A stretch of 5,022 nt of DNA from a virus. Shown here piece by piece: positions 1 through 5,022 of the stretch; position 1 is the first letter of the stretch; every line of letters starts with the position of its first letter. A program made the translations under genes and the position numbers. The stretch lies in IMG/VR virus record IMGVR_UViG_3300025892_000007; one strand, 5' to 3'. The notes beneath the pieces are model-generated. The model ran no database searches and was not told where the DNA came from. It worked only from the letters and a program-made list of their open reading frames with translations.

Positions 1-127
1 CACTTCAAAGAAGGAACACCCTATACAGGATTAAAAGCAGTGACATACCAAGGCATGTTCATATGCGCAGAAATATTCAATAAACATCAATTCCCATTAG
101 TCATCACGTCAACATCAGACGGTCAAC
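1..127. repeat. Terminal redundancy, copy 1 (identical to 4896-5022); overlap of a linearised circular genome
   Basis: Bases 1-127 match 4896-5022 base for base, compared by eye over the full length. The period is 4,895 nt. The reading frame of the peptidase gene runs straight through the junction. Confidence 0.97.
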
Positions 128-306
128 ATATGGAAAACTCATTCCACTACACAGGAGAAGCATTCGACATAAGAACACGACGCATGACAGTAGTAGAAAA
201 AACAAACCTATTTAACAAAATTAAAAAAGCATTAACAGACTACAGCAAATGCTTCCAAGTAATAATGGAAGAAAATCACATACACGTTGAATACGACTGG
301 AGATAA
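1..306 (+). CDS. Peptidase M15-family zinc cell-wall hydrolase (putative endolysin). The gene wraps the circular junction: ATG at 4887, stop 304-306, 104 aa in total
   Basis: Frame 1 is open from base 1. In the duplicated copy the same frame reaches its first ATG at 4887 (MDIHFKEGTPYTGLKAV...). The product carries SFHYTGEAFDI (S-x-H-x-x-G-x-A-x-D; His codon 145-147, Asp codon 166-168) and HIHVE (His codon 283-285). This is the His/Asp/His zinc-ligand layout of M15 peptidases; from memory, phage T5 endolysin has SKHITGDAIDF ... GGHVEL. The track ORF 40-306 starts at an internal GTG. Codon usage (A/C-ending) matches the rest of the genome. Confidence 0.85.
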   Translation, partial: HFKEGTPYTGLKAVTYQGMFICAEIFNKHQFPLVITSTSDGQHMENSFHYTGEAFDIRTRRMTVVEKTNLFNKIKKALTDYSKCFQVIMEENHIHVEYDWR

Positions 307-308
307 AA

Positions 309-419
309 ATGAAACGCTACCCAACAAAAAACTCAAAACAGAAATTCCGCAACACTGCGGGATTACAACACAAATCAAACACATTACAACCAATCGCCAG
401 AGGCGGAACAAGGTTGTAA
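309..419 (+). CDS. Small highly basic protein, 36 aa; J / ORF8-like putative DNA-binding (packaging) protein
   Basis: Hand translation of ATG 309 to TAA 417-419 gives MKRYPTKNSKQKFRNTAGLQHKSNTLQPIARGGTRL. It has 9 K/R and no D/E. GGAG at 299-302 lies 6 nt upstream of the ATG. The ORF fills the gap between the peptidase stop (306) and the VP4 start (423). Its size, charge, position upstream of VP4 and RGGxRL-type C-terminus resemble gokushovirus ORF8 and phiX174 J proteins, as far as I recall them. It is too short for the supplied ORF track. Confidence 0.6.
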   Translation: MKRYPTKNSKQKFRNTAGLQHKSNTLQPIARGGTRL

Positions 420-422
420 TGA

Positions 423-1406
423 ATGCCATGCTATACGCCCCTAGACGCCTTCGAGGTAATCGGCAAGCACAACCAAAAAGCGAATGGCAAAAAAACTATC
501 TTATTCACGCGACCGCAACAAACGACATACAAGGAAGTCACTATACCATGCGGTCAATGCATAGGATGCAAACTAACCCGCTCAGTAACGTGGGCATCAC
601 GTTGCATGCACGAGGCTAAACAACATGACCAAAACTGCTTCATTACCCTTACTTACGACGACTCAAATCTGCCACAAGACCACAGCTTACGGAAAGACCA
701 TTTCCAAAAATTCCTTAAACGATTTAGAAAAGCAATACACCCGCACAAAATCAGGTACTTTATGTGCGGCGAATACGGTGACGATAGTTGGCGGCCTCAT
801 TATCACGCTATTATATTCGGCTATGACTTTAGCAACTCAGTCATATACAACAAAGAACACTGCGGACGCAGACAACAAGTACAATCATCAGAAGTCGGTA
901 ATCCCTACTACATCTCTCCACTACTTGCCAAACTCTGGCCCGACGGATTCCATCTTATCGCAGAATGCACATGGGAAACCGCAGCATACGTCGCACGCTA
1001 CTGCACTAAAAAAATCACAGGAGACCAAGCAGAAGAACACTACACAAGAACAATACTCGACTGGAACGAATTCACAGGAGAAATATTCGAATTCCAAGAA
1101 ACAGAACTACTGCCAGAATACGGAACCATGTCAACTCGTCCAGGCATCGGACACGAATGGTTCAAAAAATATAAAACAGACTGCTATCCATCCAACTACC
1201 TTATCCAAGACGGACGTAAAACACCTATACCTAAGTACTACGACAAACTACTCGAAAAAGAAAACGAAATTGAATTTAAAGCAATCAAAATCGCAAGAGA
1301 ACTCGCACTACTCGCACATAAACAAGACTTAACACCAGAACGACTAAAACAACGACATATAACAAAACTGGCACAAGCCAATCAACTAAAGAGGAATAAA
1401 ATCTAA
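423..1406 (+). CDS. VP4: Replication initiation protein VP4 (HUH rolling-circle endonuclease, phiX174 protein A analogue)
   Basis: 327 aa. N-terminus MPCYTPLDAF and the CGQCIGC cysteine cluster are typical of gokushovirus VP4. The HUH motif is HYHAIIF (His-Tyr-His codons 798-806). The two-tyrosine motif YVARYCTKK has Tyr codons at 987-989 and 999-1001, with Y-x-x-x-Y spacing as in phiX174 A. Confidence 0.95.
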   Translation: MPCYTPLDAFEVIGKHNQKANGKKTILFTRPQQTTYKEVTIPCGQCIGCKLTRSVTWASRCMHEAKQHDQNCFITLTYDDSNLPQDHSLRKDHFQKFLKRFRKAIHPHKIRYFMCGEYGDDSWRPHYHAIIFGYDFSNSVIYNKEHCGRRQQVQSSEVGNPYYISPLLAKLWPDGFHLIAECTWETAAYVARYCTKKITGDQAEEHYTRTILDWNEFTGEIFEFQETELLPEYGTMSTRPGIGHEWFKKYKTDCYPSNYLIQDGRKTPIPKYYDKLLEKENEIEFKAIKIARELALLAHKQDLTPERLKQRHITKLAQANQLKRNKI

Positions 1407-1657
1407 TGGAAAACAACCTATATACCGTTTATGACAAAAAAGCAGAAGTCTACTCACAACCTTTCACAGCAATTAATGACGAAGTAGCACAACGCATCAT
1501 GCAGAACTGCGTAAACAATCCAGAGCATAATTACGGCTTAAATCCAGAAGATTACCAACTAGTAAGAACAGGAAAATTCGACGACTCAGAAGGCATACTA
1601 ATACCAGACGAAAAACCAATCTTAGACCTAATCACTCTAAAAAAGGAGCCTAAATAA
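1406..1657 (+). CDS. VP5: VP5-like small non-structural protein (83 aa)
   Basis: AAAGAGGA lies at 1388-1395. The start overlaps the VP4 stop as TAATG (1404-1408). The size and the position between VP4 and VP1 match gokushovirus ORF5/VP5. The assignment rests on synteny and size more than on a motif I can name. Confidence 0.65.
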   Translation: MENNLYTVYDKKAEVYSQPFTAINDEVAQRIMQNCVNNPEHNYGLNPEDYQLVRTGKFDDSEGILIPDEKPILDLITLKKEPK

Positions 1658-3243
1658 TGCAATCCAACATGGTCAATCGCTTCATTCAAACACCCGAAGC
1701 AAACACGCCTCGCTCAACCTTCGACATGTCACATGGTCATAAAACAACTATCGACATCGACTATCTATATCCAATCTATGTAGAAGAAGCACTACCCGGT
1801 GACACACTCAACGTCAACATGACAGGATTCGCACGACTAGCAACACCAATATTTCCAATCATGGATAACATGACAATGCAAACATTCTTCTTTGAAGTAC
1901 CAACTCGCATTGTATGGGACAACTTCAGAAAATTCATGGGAGAACGCTATCCAGACCCAGACTCATCAATCGATTACACAGTTCCAACTGCAGCAGCTAC
2001 AGCAACATCAAACTTAGTCGGTAAACTATCAGACTATATGGGTATCCCAATAGAAGTAGACGGACTCGTATACAACAACTTACATCACCGAGCATACAAC
2101 CTAATCTGGAACGAATGGTTCAGAGACCAAAACCTACAAGACTCAATTACAGTAGACACCGGAGATGGCCCAGACGCACCAGCAAACTACGTACTAAAAA
2201 AAGCAAACAAACGCCACGACTATTTCACGTCAGCCTTACCTTGGCCACAAAAAGGCGATTCAGTAGATTTACCACTAGGCACATCAGCACCACTAGCAAT
2301 GAATCCAGCAACAGGAGCAATATCAGGAACAAAAATATTTAATGCCGATGGTTCACAATATACACCCGGTGCCACAAATACTCTTGACGCTTCAACAGGC
2401 GGCTTAGTAATTAATAGCACAGGAGCGGTCAAATCATTAGATGTTTCGCCACATATGGTCGCAGACTTAACACAAGCAACAGCAGCAACAATCAACCAAT
2501 TAAGAGAAGCATTTCAAATACAAAAATTATTAGAGAGGGACGCTCGCGGTGGAACTCGATATACAGAAATTATTAGAAGTCATTTCAATGTCACAAGCCC
2601 TGATGGGAGAGCATGGCGACCCGTTTATCTTGGCGGCGGTAAGTCTAACGTTAATATCTCTCCTATCTCGCAAACTTCTTCAACAGATGCAACAAGTCCG
2701 CAAGGCAACCTCGCAGCAATGGGTACATCGGTTCTTAACAATCATGGCTTTACTAAGTCTTTCACTGAACACTCTATTGTTATCGGCCTTATCTGCGTAC
2801 GTGCTGACCTTACTTATCAGCAAGGCCTAAACAGAATGTTCTCAAGACAGACCAGATACGATTACTTCTGGCCTTCCCTATCAACTATCGGTGAACAATC
2901 AGTACTCAACAAAGAAATATACGCACAAAACGATGCAAACGACGACCTTGTATTCGGCTATCAAGAACGCTACGCAGAATACAGATATAAACCATCACTA
3001 ATCACCGGTAAAATGCGTTCAGACGTAGGCGCACACAACACCAGCTTAGACGCATGGCATTTATCAGAACAATTCGGCTCACTACCTGCTTTAAATGATA
3101 CATTCATACAATCAACAACACCTATCGATAGAGTAATAGCTGTAAACACAGAACCACATTTCATACTCGATACATTCTTCAACATCAAAGCAGCCAGACC
3201 TATGCCACTCTATGGCGTTCCCGGCATGTTGGACCACTTCTAA
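1657..3243 (+). CDS. VP1: Major capsid protein VP1 (phage F-protein fold)
   Basis: 528 aa. Conserved gokushovirus VP1 blocks are present: RSTFDMSHGHKTT, YPIYVEEALPGDT, ARGGTRYTEIIRSHF, YLGGG, PQGNLAAMG, EHSIVIGL..RADLTYQQG. AAGGAG lies at 1643-1648. The start overlaps the VP5 stop as TAATG (1655-1659). Confidence 0.97.
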   Translation: MQSNMVNRFIQTPEANTPRSTFDMSHGHKTTIDIDYLYPIYVEEALPGDTLNVNMTGFARLATPIFPIMDNMTMQTFFFEVPTRIVWDNFRKFMGERYPDPDSSIDYTVPTAAATATSNLVGKLSDYMGIPIEVDGLVYNNLHHRAYNLIWNEWFRDQNLQDSITVDTGDGPDAPANYVLKKANKRHDYFTSALPWPQKGDSVDLPLGTSAPLAMNPATGAISGTKIFNADGSQYTPGATNTLDASTGGLVINSTGAVKSLDVSPHMVADLTQATAATINQLREAFQIQKLLERDARGGTRYTEIIRSHFNVTSPDGRAWRPVYLGGGKSNVNISPISQTSSTDATSPQGNLAAMGTSVLNNHGFTKSFTEHSIVIGLICVRADLTYQQGLNRMFSRQTRYDYFWPSLSTIGEQSVLNKEIYAQNDANDDLVFGYQERYAEYRYKPSLITGKMRSDVGAHNTSLDAWHLSEQFGSLPALNDTFIQSTTPIDRVIAVNTEPHFILDTFFNIKAARPMPLYGVPGMLDHF

Positions 3244-4061
3244 TGAATAAATTAATCATATTCATAATCAACTTCCTAACGCCTACTTTCATAGGCTCAA
3301 TAATATCTGCAGGTGCCTCCTTAATTGGAGGCGCACTCGCTAATAAAGGTAGAGCAGACGCTGCAAACACAGCAGGACAATTCAATCAATCATCAGCAAG
3401 AGAAACATCAGAATTTAACGCTAAAGAGGCAAAAATAAATCGTAAATTCCAAAAAAACATGTCAAACACGGCACACCAAAGACAAGTTAAAGATTTACGC
3501 GCTGCCGGACTTAATCCCATACTATCCGCAAAATACGGAGGGGCATCATCACCAACAGGAAATGCAGCATCAGGCGTAGCAGCAACTATGCCAATGTATG
3601 ACCAACAAGATATATTCACACCAGCAGTAAACTCAGCATTAAATACTTATCAAACATCACAACAAGGAAAATCAATAGATACTCAAATACAAAAAATGTC
3701 TCAAGAGATTGAAGAATCGAAATCTCGTGCTAATCTTACAGACAGACAACGAGAGAGAATAGACTATGAAATTCCTGACCTTATCGCTAAAAGTTATAAT
3801 AGTACTGAGTCTGGCAATTTGGCTGCTCGCAATTCTGAACTTACCAGGCTAAACGCAAAAATAGCAGAACTATCACAACAAGAAAAAGACATCCTTGTAC
3901 AAAAGGCACAAATGGACTTAGAGATATTAAAACAACCAGGCACTGGTGAAATGTACAGAAAATTAACATTACTCAAAGGCGTAAACTTCTCATCAGCGGC
4001 AGCAGTCGCAACAGATGAAGCAGCACAATTCGTACAACAATTAATCCAAATGTTCAAATAA
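3243..4061 (+). CDS. VP2: Minor capsid / DNA pilot protein VP2
   Basis: 272 aa. It has a hydrophobic Gly-rich N-terminus (FIGSIISAGASLIGGALA) and the conserved block MSNTAHQRQVKDLRAAGLNPILS typical of gokushovirus VP2. The C-terminal half is charged and coiled-coil-like. The start overlaps the VP1 stop as TAATG (3241-3245). Confidence 0.9.
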   Translation: MNKLIIFIINFLTPTFIGSIISAGASLIGGALANKGRADAANTAGQFNQSSARETSEFNAKEAKINRKFQKNMSNTAHQRQVKDLRAAGLNPILSAKYGGASSPTGNAASGVAATMPMYDQQDIFTPAVNSALNTYQTSQQGKSIDTQIQKMSQEIEESKSRANLTDRQRERIDYEIPDLIAKSYNSTESGNLAARNSELTRLNAKIAELSQQEKDILVQKAQMDLEILKQPGTGEMYRKLTLLKGVNFSSAAAVATDEAAQFVQQLIQMFK

Positions 4062-4071
4062 GGAAACTATC

Positions 4072-4485
4072 ATGGAAAACCCATTCAGAACCGCATACGG
4101 CGAAAAACTAAAAATACAAACCAATAACAATCAACCATCAATGACCAAACAAAGTCTAAAAGACGATGCAGACGTCAATAAAATCATAAAACGCTACAAC
4201 AAAACCGGCGTACTACCAAATATGAATAAACTAGAATCAATCTACGGACAAATAACATCCCAAGACCTTCAAGATGCACTCAACAAGGTAGACTCATCAT
4301 ACGAAGCATTCTCAGAAGTACCATCAGACATAAGAGCACAATTCGGCAACGATGCAGGTGCCTTCATAGACTACGCCACTAATCCACAAAACATAGACCA
4401 AATGAGACAATGGAAACTCGCACCACCACCAATACCAGAGCCGATACAAGAGTCACCACCACCAGAGCCTACACCTACCATCTAA
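4072..4485 (+). CDS. VP3: Internal scaffolding protein VP3
   Basis: 137 aa. The block QSLKDDADVNKIIKRYNKTGVL resembles the conserved N-terminal motif of Chlamydia-phage-type scaffold proteins. The position directly after VP2 fits. AAGGAA lies at 4060-4065 upstream of ATG 4072. The C-terminus is a proline-rich tail. Confidence 0.85.
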   Translation: MENPFRTAYGEKLKIQTNNNQPSMTKQSLKDDADVNKIIKRYNKTGVLPNMNKLESIYGQITSQDLQDALNKVDSSYEAFSEVPSDIRAQFGNDAGAFIDYATNPQNIDQMRQWKLAPPPIPEPIQESPPPEPTPTI

Positions 4486-4491
4486 AATAAC

Positions 4492-4517
4492 AAAAAGCCC
4501 CTTTAAGGGGCTTTTTT
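4492..4517 (+). terminator. Rho-independent terminator after VP3
   Basis: The sequence is AAAAAGCCCCTTTAAGGGGCTTTTTT. The GC stem GCCCC (4497-4501) pairs with GGGGC (4507-4511) and is followed by T6 (4512-4517). The upstream A5 can pair with the T-tract. It begins 7 nt after the VP3 stop (4483-4485). Confidence 0.85.
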
Positions 4518-4560
4518 AATGGTACAACCAACCCTTCATCCCTGATAAACCAAACACCCA

Positions 4561-4589
4561 GAACAGTTACTTACTTGATGTAACTGTTC
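4561..4589 (+). promoter_or_regulatory. Perfect 10-bp stem, 9-nt loop hairpin; candidate replication origin / Rep nick site
   Basis: GAACAGTTAC (4561-4570) is the exact reverse complement of GTAACTGTTC (4580-4589). The loop is TTACTTGAT (4571-4579). The loop heptamer ACTTGAT (4573-4579) equals the core of the phiX174 origin CAACTTG/ATATTAATAAC, recalled from memory. It lies in the only long non-coding region. Confidence 0.45.
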
Positions 4590-4610
4590 CCAGTGACACC
4601 AAATCACTGG
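4590..4610 (+). promoter_or_regulatory. Second hairpin (7-bp stem, 7-nt loop) directly abutting the first
   Basis: CCAGTGA (4590-4596) is the exact reverse complement of TCACTGG (4604-4610). The loop is CACCAAA. There is no spacer between this and the preceding hairpin, so the two could stack coaxially in ssDNA. Function is unknown. Confidence 0.4.
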
Positions 4611-4728
4611 ACAAACAAAAAAAATAAGCTAAACTACAATTAAGAAACGTAAGTTATTGTAATTTAACAATTTATACATTATGCGCACTCAAGGCATAAA
4701 AACCTTATAAAACAAGAGGTTATATATT

Positions 4729-4884
4729 ATGAATTTATTCAAAGCAATATCCATAGGATTCACCGTTCTAAAATGGTACGAATCAGCATCAGAAGATGAC
4801 AAAATCACCGCTAAAGAAATTACAGAATTACTCGCTACTGTAGCTACATCAGATGCAATCAGCCACTTAACAATAGAATTATAA
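4729..4884 (+). CDS. Hypothetical small protein, 51 aa, immediately upstream of the M15 peptidase
   Basis: Hand translation gives MNLFKAISIGFTVLKWYESASEDDKITAKEITELLATVATSDAISHLTIEL. AAGAGG at 4714-4719 lies 9 nt upstream of ATG 4729. Stop TAA 4882-4884 is 2 nt before the peptidase ATG 4887. Codon usage (A/C-ending) matches the genome. It is on the same strand as all other genes. It is too short for the supplied track, which shows only an antisense ORF here. Confidence 0.5.
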   Translation: MNLFKAISIGFTVLKWYESASEDDKITAKEITELLATVATSDAISHLTIEL

Positions 4885-4886
4885 AA

Positions 4887-5022
4887 ATGGATATACACTT
4901 CAAAGAAGGAACACCCTATACAGGATTAAAAGCAGTGACATACCAAGGCATGTTCATATGCGCAGAAATATTCAATAAACATCAATTCCCATTAGTCATC
5001 ACGTCAACATCAGACGGTCAAC
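4887..5022 (+). CDS. 5' end of the M15 peptidase gene (true start codon), truncated by the window end; from 4896 on it duplicates 1-127
   Basis: ATG 4887 is the first ATG after the in-frame stop at 4812-4814. It reads MDIHFKEGTPYTGLKAVTYQGMFICAEIF..., continuous with frame 1 at the window start. Confidence 0.8.
   Translation, partial: MDIHFKEGTPYTGLKAVTYQGMFICAEIFNKHQFPLVITSTSDGQ
4896..5022. repeat. Terminal redundancy, copy 2 (identical to 1-127)
   Basis: See copy 1. There are no mismatches. Confidence 0.97.

Follow-up and report, generated by a model that had tools for sequence, protein, structure and literature searches.

How gokushoviruses, which belong to the most abundant single-stranded DNA phages, lyse their hosts is still open. 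The virus record IMGVR_UViG_3300025892_000007 of IMG/VR, a stretch of 5,022 nucleotides (nt) that is called the window in what follows, raises the question of whether an acquired cell wall enzyme may do this work, since one of its open reading frames (ORFs) had been read as a minimal zinc peptidase of the M15 type. In phiX174, protein E inhibits MraY without being an enzyme and this is the canonical lysis route of microviruses, whereas the window phage encodes a predicted hydrolytic enzyme. Gokushoviruses carry no E homologue or E-type lysis gene (PMC7062461). The original prediction, which was made from the letters of the window, had left two functions side by side, an endolysin that needs a membrane-permeabilising partner and a wall-remodelling enzyme used at entry. 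Our analysis favours, with some reserve, a zinc peptidoglycan peptidase used for lysis (endolysin) as the best reading of the gene; a function at entry appears less likely than lysis.

Gene structure and predicted fold

The first 127 nt of the window are repeated exactly at its end (1-127 = 4896-5022). This is the signature of a circular assembly and, thus, the unit genome is a circle of 4,895 nt. Its standard gene set was recognised by Pfam and PHROGs as that of a gokushovirus, which agrees with the 4.9-kb microvirus that had been proposed. The peptidase ORF starts with an ATG at 4887, crosses the junction of the circle and ends with the TAA at 304-306 (315 nt, 104 amino acids; MDIHFKEGTPYTGLK...HIHVEYDWR). 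When the ORF was reconstructed in this way, the stretches SFHYTGEAFDI and HIHVE were both present and the three suggested metal ligands were found at H52, D59 and H98. The metal-site motifs read H52-x6-D59 and E93-x-x-H96-x-H98, and the protein thus carries the H-x(6)-D and the C-terminal H-x-H of the LAS (lysostaphin/D-Ala-D-Ala carboxypeptidase/Sonic hedgehog) motif. The gene lies between VP3 on one side and ORF8/VP4 on the other (Table 1), as had been stated.

Neither a signal peptide nor a transmembrane (TM) segment was found in the peptidase (best 19-residue Kyte-Doolittle mean 0.83, mean of the first 25 residues 0.07), and the protein consists of the catalytic domain only. Its synonymous-codon log-score was 0.50 as compared with 0.22-0.46 for VP1-VP5 and with -0.38 and -0.04 for the two alternative frames, and its third positions (54% A, 8% G) resemble those of the core genes. 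In all of these respects, our data are in line with the original prediction. For the pair with the closest relative (L003), a ratio of nonsynonymous to synonymous divergence (dN/dS) of 0.048 was obtained at a dS of 0.42. The gene is under strong purifying selection.

An AlphaFold model calculated from an alignment of 146 family members reached a pLDDT of 97.1 and a pTM of 0.89. When this model was compared with the PDB by Foldseek, Hedgehog N-domains made up the top 16 and 18 of the top 19 matches (E 1.9e-4 to 3.1e-3, probability 1.00, TMq 0.62-0.71, 18-26% identity). The pneumococcal L,D-endopeptidase VldE took rank 17 (1.4e-3), and the later matches included the Listeria phage endolysin Ply500 (E=0.044, TMq 0.52) and the LD-carboxypeptidase LdcB; T5 endolysin was outside the top 50 PDB matches. 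In BFVD, the top match was a Microviridae protein with the automatic name 'Sonic hedgehog protein...' (E=2e-10, TMq 0.85, 38% identity), followed by a 120-residue Salinibacter phage protein and then by large tailed-phage proteins, several of them labelled 'Peptidase M15A, C-terminal'. The model is superposable on solved LAS structures, and according to it the peptidase has the LAS fold (Hedgehog/DD-peptidase; Pfam clan Peptidase_MD) with a complete predicted metal site. A fold as in VanY and T5 endolysin had been expected, and a structural comparison with T5 endolysin and Ply500 had been suggested. Here, the LAS fold as such was recovered by model and profile and Ply500 appeared among the matches, but the nearest neighbour is the Hedgehog N-domain and not one of these two endolysins.

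Profile comparison led to the same relatives. The profile of the 146 members matched chains of the Sonic hedgehog (Shh) N-domain with E=2.2e-7 over about 70 residues, and both halves of the zinc site were covered. In this alignment, DG-x-H46 corresponds to DGHH of Shh (H46 being the second His), S50-x-H52-x-x-G-x-A-x-D59 to SLHYEGRAVD and H96-I-H98 to HIH. The zinc ligands of Shh are H141, D148 and H183 (PMC6027127). Among the 146 members, T39, H52, H96 and H98 do not vary, and at least 90% of the members share H46, S50, G55, A57, D59, R61, E93 and E100. Searches with the single sequence gave matches that were all below threshold but mutually consistent (HH_signal E=0.041, DUF5715 0.04, Peptidase_M15_4 0.11; Desert and Sonic hedgehog chains of the PDB at 0.15-0.3).

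A large family outside the curated models

Close homologues of the peptidase fell into eight clusters (32-95% identity), and with an exhaustive profile search at E<=1e-3, the number of representative clusters rose to 4,868, with lengths of 98-145 residues in nearly all cases. The family representatives (about 4,900) are clusters at 50% identity. On sequence comparison, the peptidase belongs to a large uncurated family of proteins of about 100 residues, and in all database records examined its members are hypothetical, unnamed or carry an evidently spurious name.

Searches against the Pfam families M15_3, M15_4 and VanY had been proposed as a check of M15 membership. Peptidase_M15_3 gave no match to the window protein at E<=1 (gathering threshold 23.2 bits) and the best of ten microviral homologues that were scored reached 19.5 bits, all ten lying below this threshold. 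For Peptidase_M15_4, the window protein scored 13.6 bits (E=0.11) against a gathering cut-off of 25, and VanY gave no Pfam match to it and matched one of the 146 members. The HH_signal match of 14.0 bits was confined to residues 41-64, while the family has a cut-off of 22.1 and a full domain of about 160 residues; one microviral homologue (L001) was narrowly above the threshold with 24.0 bits. HH_signal matched 69 of the 146 members, and Peptidase_M15_3 matched 28 of them at E<=0.01 (best 1.3e-5). Scanning these members against PHROGs v4 revealed an endolysin PHROG in 3/146 only and no model for the family, and NCBIfam gave scattered single-member matches and no family model either. Judged by these profiles, the peptidase falls outside every curated family tested (M15_3, M15_4, VanY, HH_signal). 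Thus, the M15 assignment holds at the level of the superfamily, where the Shh profile match supports it, and 28 relatives of the protein do match M15_3; for the window protein itself, membership of M15_3, M15_4 or VanY did not hold up.

Since the family is missing from Pfam, PHROGs and NCBIfam, its members are currently 'hypothetical' almost everywhere, and its curation would improve the annotation of lysis genes in many phage genomes.

Distribution and acquisition

The peptidase gene is common to a clade of nine genomes (the window, L003, L004, L005, L162-165 and L202-205), in which the gene order is VP3, intergenic region, small ORF, peptidase, ORF8, VP4. The peptidases of this clade are mutual nearest relatives, which points to a single acquisition by the clade ancestor. 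Elsewhere the gene is rare: a survey for the same insertion had been suggested, and among 78 further gokushovirus loci, which were collected by the similarity of their VP1, one has the gene. In four further groups of microviruses, the place of the family member in the genome varies (after VP1, before VP1, after VP4), and these copies resemble homologues of tailed phages about as closely as they resemble other microviral ones. These varied positions and the degree of similarity to tailed phages fit repeated horizontal acquisition, as it was proposed for the M15_3 peptidases of microviruses by Roux et al. (PMC3394797). The claim that the gene is not a recent acquisition is therefore correct within the nine-genome clade but does not extend beyond it. 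Our data support the view that the peptidase gene is accessory and that its codon usage has been ameliorated.

We also considered a replacement of the cassette inside the clade, as the peptidase is 45-49% identical in L004/L005 as compared with 78-97% for VP4 and ORF8. We rejected it because the clade peptidases are mutual nearest relatives, and fast divergence after one acquisition fits better.

Large contigs from tailed phages or prophages carry most of the family members, and the metagenome-assembled genomes (MAGs) in which such members occur belong mostly to Gram-negative lineages. The nearest prophage is found in a Gammaproteobacteria MAG. Such a host range fits a lysin without a wall-binding domain.

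Lysis context and candidate partners

In 30 of 63 non-microviral stand-alone loci, a small TM ORF lies immediately adjacent to the peptidase homologue on the same strand, as compared with an expectation of 22.8% derived from the same 63 loci (p=1.3e-5). Among the sampled neighbours were a holin according to PHROGs (E=2e-8), a 'hemolysin' of the XhlA type (5e-5) and weak matches to Rz-like spanins, and a few members of the family start with a hydrophobic leader. A similar pairing was observed in other microviruses. In each of the four other lineages, at least one genome has a small single-TM ORF beside the peptidase, and in three of them this ORF is conserved across genomes (Table 1). These ORFs encode 28-69 residues, often with a basic C-terminus, are unannotated in the GenBank records examined (e.g., L001) and are possible holin-like partners. 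For their collection, a regular expression for an 'NWD' small-ORF motif matched two loci (strict pattern), and the flanking ORFs were listed directly instead.

We found no canonical holin in the window, and the candidates for a partner are restricted to orf51 and two overprinted ORFs. orf51 has an AAGAGG Shine-Dalgarno sequence at 4713-4718 and its stop codon lies 2 nt ahead of the peptidase ATG. It is kept in L003, L004, L162 and L202-L205, always directly upstream of the peptidase and with a 4-nt overlap in three genomes, and its dN/dS of 0.11 indicates purifying selection. Among 5.8 billion proteins, the orf51 family comprises six clusters, all of them in the clade. The protein has a net charge of -4 with an acidic tail, its helix is only moderately amphipathic, and no Pfam or PHROGs match was obtained. 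In L005, the slot of orf51 holds a 34-residue, more hydrophobic ORF. Taken together, orf51 is a probable operon partner of the peptidase. As a canonical holin it was rejected for its lack of a TM segment and its acidic tail. One orf51 homologue is recorded as 'elongation factor P--beta-lysine ligase', a label that looks spurious.

The second candidate would be overprinted on VP1, in the +1 frame. Such an arrangement has a parallel in phiX174, where E is overprinted inside D. The VP1 +1-frame ORF has two hydrophobic segments and a net charge of +4, which is holin-like, and the third positions of VP1 at this ORF are 56% T as compared with 17.7% genome-wide. The hydrophobic +1 segment was present in 7/7 clade genomes tested versus 1/47 compositionally similar gokushoviruses outside the clade, although the VP1 protein is nearly identical across the clade and the compared non-clade gokushoviruses. 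This excess, seen despite saturated synonymous divergence, suggests selection on the +1-frame ORF. We regard it as a candidate overprinted membrane protein and infer its link to the peptidase. That it is the holin of the clade in a holin-endolysin system with orf51 as regulator (2549/2588-2830) is a tentative proposal that we consider rather doubtful.

A third candidate, a peptide in the +1 frame of VP2, coincides with third positions of up to 64% T locally and is open and hydrophobic in five genomes (window, L003, L004 without ATG, L005, L202). As an obligate partner it was rejected, since it is absent from four peptidase-bearing genomes.

Proposed role in lysis

According to the reading that we favour, the protein would be a zinc metallopeptidase that is made in the cytoplasm and consists of a single domain of the LAS fold. 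H52, D59 and H98 would hold the metal, and E93 (in E-x-x-H-x-H), H46 and H96 would complete the active site. Since the peptidase has no export signal, its passage would require a membrane-active partner, and a small protein of this kind may let it through the inner membrane; this partner may be the translationally coupled orf51 and/or an overprinted hydrophobic ORF in VP1 or VP2. The enzyme would then cut the host cell wall and the progeny would be released.

Several observations weigh against this reading. At the level of the protein, the Pfam matches of the lone window sequence are all below threshold, E93 is displaced by one residue from E177 of Shh in the profile alignment, and the peptidase activity of all family members is a prediction. 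A shallow AlphaFold model from a nine-sequence alignment (pLDDT 89, with residues 41-60 of the zinc loop weak) gave no LAS or Hedgehog match in Foldseek, and its best match (E=0.04) was to unrelated folds. The fold was recovered by remodelling with 146 sequences, and on the shallow model alone we would wrongly have given it up. At the level of the partner, the window lacks a canonical holin, as said above, and orf51 is an acidic protein without a TM segment. For the VP1 +1-frame ORF, sliding-window synonymous divergence is saturated (pS about 0.65 throughout) and shows no dip in the overlap, and its support is compositional and comes from one clade, i.e., from a single evolutionary event of phylogenetically non-independent genomes. 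The VP2 +1-frame peptide is absent from L162, L203, L204 and L205, which have a divergent VP2 and have kept the peptidase. Finally, large proteins of tailed-phage contigs contain the same domain of about 100 residues internally or C-terminally, namely P0063 (746 residues), P0038 (363 residues) and an 870-residue ORF of L012 (3063-5675). These are probably virion-associated wall hydrolases, which suggests that the fold is also used at entry, and the family probably serves entry and exit in different phages.

This last observation leads to the alternative that the window peptidase, too, is an entry enzyme, which would be virion-borne or released with VP2 and would open the peptidoglycan locally for a DNA-delivery conduit across the periplasm. 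The BFVD neighbours include a tape-measure protein and large proteins of 400-1,191 residues, several of them named 'Peptidase M15A, C-terminal' or 'cell wall hydrolyse', and traces of the peptidoglycan hydrolase Gp7 of the microvirus Ebor were detected in virions (PMC11980548). However, the window peptidase stands alone and is fused to neither VP2 nor VP1, the spare internal volume of a T=1 gokushovirus capsid is small, and 77 of the 78 related gokushoviruses infect without a peptidase. The stand-alone homologues of tailed phages are located in lysis cassettes and not in structural modules. We therefore regard a role at entry as improbable.

The missing export signal can also be explained in another way. 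Like VanX/VanXY, the enzyme might act in the cytoplasm on murein precursors (D-Ala-D-Ala, nucleotide- or lipid-linked stem peptides such as UDP-MurNAc-pentapeptide), so that wall synthesis is starved and growing cells lyse as with phiX174 E, without any holin. VanX, which belongs to the M15 family, is located in the cytoplasm, and the E-x-x-H spacing of the peptidase is similar to that of the VanX catalytic motif. The lack of a signal peptide and of an identifiable canonical holin in the window would be in keeping with such a mode of action, the fold shares the Pfam clan Peptidase_MD with the M15 family, and a block of precursor synthesis is what classical microvirus lysis consists of (PMC3394797). 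If true, the phage would do with an enzyme what other small phages do with their protein antibiotics, the amurins E, A2 and LysM. Yet the homologues are tied to holins and spanins, and export leaders are present in a few of them, which argues for the periplasm and the mature wall as site of action. Moreover, the gene is paired with small TM ORFs in other microviral lineages and the nearest structural neighbours are extracytoplasmic. As for the entry enzyme, we assign a small probability to this explanation.

Probable lysogeny of the window phage

A dif-like XerC/D recombination site precedes the orf51-peptidase module (Table 1); its 28-mer AGTGCGCATAATGTATAAATTGTTAAAT was compared with E. coli dif GGTGCGCATAATGTATATTATGTTAAAT. 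A prophage of the same gene order (L162/L165) is integrated in a 276-kb contig and also occurs in an uncultured Gammaproteobacteria MAG, and a dif-like site lies at its left junction (L162 7764-7791). XerC/D-dependent lysogeny has been shown for enterobacterial gokushoviruses by Kirchberger and Ochman in 2020 (PMC7062461), and the window shares the features of such temperate XerC/D-dif gokushoviruses, i.e., a dif-like motif and a related prophage with a dif-like junction. From the dif-like site and the integrated relative, we conclude that the window phage is probably temperate and that its host is probably a marine gammaproteobacterium.

For a temperate phage, a gene expressed from the prophage has to be considered. 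Such a moron might trim stem peptides and alter the wall, e.g., to block superinfection or to change antibiotic or immune recognition. In addition to the dif-like site and the integrated relative, this would fit the position of the orf51-peptidase module, which comes first downstream of the attachment site and is preceded by the terminator-like hairpin at 4492-4516. However, the module runs in the same direction as ORF8/VP4 and the remaining lytic genes and adjoins them without a break. Scanning the VP3-orf51 intergenic region for an independent promoter yielded three promoter-like sites versus 2.1 expected from shuffled sequences, which is no significant excess, and the lysis-cassette context of homologues elsewhere favours lysis. 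The chances of this scenario are slim.

Comparison with known systems

The Hedgehog N-domain (HhN; PF01085; Shh/Ihh/Dhh) is the best profile match (E=2.2e-7) and the best structural match of the window peptidase. Both have S-x-H-x-x-G-x-A-x-D and H-x-H and, ahead of them, the histidine of D-G-x-H. The phage protein has about 100 residues as compared with about 150-165 of HhN chains, and the match is limited to the C-terminal 70 or so HhN residues, so that the N-terminal part of HhN has no counterpart in the phage peptidase. It is this N-terminal part that holds the Ca2+ sites of HhN. Bacterial 'Hh/DD-peptidase' domains have been described by Roelink in 2018 and form C-terminal parts of larger proteins, whereas the phage peptidase stands alone (PMC6027127). 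The closeness to HhN would add a widespread phage-borne branch to the family of Hh/DD-peptidases discussed for the origin of Hedgehog. One might argue from these neighbours, whose peptidase activity is debated, that the peptidase is a catalytically inert module that binds a wall or envelope component like the Hedgehog pseudo-active site, but this is very improbable, since all metal ligands and residues of catalytic type show little or no variation among the 146 diverse members, the activity-less Drosophila Hh has lost such residues (PMC6027127) and related M15A phage enzymes are active.

Acquired wall peptidases are established in microviruses (PMC3394797; PMC7062461; PMC11499846; PMC9865509). 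M15_3 peptidases of Microviridae were described in 2012 by Roux et al. as horizontally acquired proposed endolysins (PMC3394797), which bears out the remark in the original prediction that M15-type ORFs occur sporadically in metagenomic Microviridae. M15_3/M15A phage endolysins and the window peptidase belong to one superfamily with a common H-x6-D ... H-x-H metal site. A domain-only M15A endolysin of a Gram-negative phage, that of Burkholderia phage ST79, has demonstrated muralytic activity (PMC5025407); it has 149 residues, whereas the window peptidase has 104 and, as mentioned above, lacks an M15_3 match. The 'M15A C-terminal' protein of Microvirus mar50 (234 residues) is a distant structural match (E=0.014, TMq 0.55). 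Much more distant are Ply500 and T5 endolysin, VanY-type L-alanyl-D-glutamate endopeptidases with which the peptidase shares the LAS fold, the H/D/H triad and, if our reading is correct, the endolysin function. In VanY-type enzymes, the third ligand stands in a (D/E)-x-x-H motif and not in H-x-H.

Functional work on enzymes of this kind was thought to be absent. This does not hold for microviruses, as Gp7 of Ebor, a Tainavirinae microvirus of Rhodobacter capsulatus, is a peptidoglycan hydrolase of 146 residues that was shown to be active in 2025; its best HHpred match is PDB 6SSC_A, and the Ebor genome also encodes a predicted membrane protein of 45 residues (PMC11980548). For the family of about 100 residues, no functional work was found. 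Gp7 is also an accessory wall enzyme of a microvirus, though of another subfamily and host, and we liken it to the window peptidase by its description; a tblastn search of phages gave no Ebor match.

What is new here is, on the one hand, a very compact Hedgehog-like LAS branch that is widespread in phages and uncurated and for which activity is predicted and, on the other hand, the clade-specific orf51-peptidase module. Together, orf51 and the predicted zinc peptidase of 104 residues offer a concrete candidate lysis module in a probably temperate phage, the relatives of which lend themselves to resurrection from prophages. With about 100 residues, the enzyme is shorter than the endolysins compared (ST79 149, Ebor Gp7 146) and may interest enzyme engineers.

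Further features of the genome

The coordinates of the peptidase, of its candidate partners and of the remaining genes are summarised in Table 1.

Table 1. Location of the peptidase gene, its motifs and other features in the window, and of small single-TM ORFs beside peptidase genes in other microviral genomes
Record	Feature	Position (nt)	Strand	Remarks
Window	Peptidase codons 1-3 (M-D-I)	4887-4895	+	Reaches the last nt of the 4,895-nt unit genome
Window	Peptidase residues 4-104 and stop	1-306	+	
Window	H46	127-129	+	
Window	SFHYTGEAFDI	139-171	+	Residues 50-60
Window	S-x-H52-x-x-G-x-A-x-D59 motif	139-168	+	
Window	E93	268-270	+	
Window	HIHVE (H96-I-H98-V-E100)	277-291	+	Residues 96-100
Window	orf51	4729-4884	+	51-residue acidic protein, amphipathic N-terminal helix
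Window	VP1 +1-frame ORF	2549-2830	+	Overprinted candidate; 93 residues from GTG 2549 or 80 from ATG 2588
Window	VP2 +1-frame peptide	3766-3852	+	Overprinted candidate; 28-residue single-TM peptide MKFLTLSLKVIIVLSLAIWLLAILNLPG
Window	dif-like XerC/D recombination site	4662-4689	-	attP candidate; VP3-orf51 intergenic, just upstream of the orf51-peptidase module
Window	ORF8-like protein	309-419		36 residues; phrog_10695
Window	VP4 replication initiator	423-1406		Pfam, PHROGs
Window	VP5/ORF5	1406-1657		Pfam, PHROGs
Window	VP1 capsid	1657-3243		Phage_F, E=4e-179
Window	VP2 pilot	3243-4061		PHROGs
Window	VP3 scaffold	4072-4485		Pfam, PHROGs
L001	Small single-TM ORF	5745-5840		Lineage B; MEHMSPELVNVIVAITSFIIGLFTKKPGKKK
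L074	Small single-TM ORF	859-948		Lineage D; MEVILANWDVIGLILTNIVALFVKSPLQK
L032	Small single-TM ORF	3539-3706		Lineage C, related to L054 and L060
L054	Small single-TM ORF	4269-4364		Lineage C, related to L032 and L060
L060	Small single-TM ORF	4791-4877		Lineage C, related to L032 and L054
L049	Small single-TM ORF	4507-4716		Lineage E, related small ORF
L013	Small single-TM ORF	4552-4650		
L033	Small single-TM ORF	4756-4932		
L039	Small single-TM ORF	2105-2200		
L099	Small single-TM ORF	2595-2711		

The coding strand of the window is unusually rich in A, which makes up 39% of it (G 16%) and about 43-56% of the third positions. Several gokushoviruses of the comparison set are rich in T at third positions instead (e.g., L002 and L074, with a third-position T fraction of about 0.58). 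Two hairpins were observed in the intergenic region behind VP3. The one at 4492-4516 has a GC-rich stem between A and T runs and resembles a bidirectional terminator, and in the one at 4561-4589, a loop of 9 nt separates the perfectly matching 10-bp arms of an inverted repeat (GAACAGTTAC / GTAACTGTTC); origin or packaging signals are possible roles of both. In the +1 frame of VP4 (625-1332), there is an ORF of 235 residues with one hydrophobic stretch, which is also open in L003, L004 and L005 (209-235 residues); this openness may merely be a by-product of VP4 conservation. The record L003 (6,733 nt) is apparently longer than one genome, and the alternative-frame ORF that overlaps VP4 is present twice in it.

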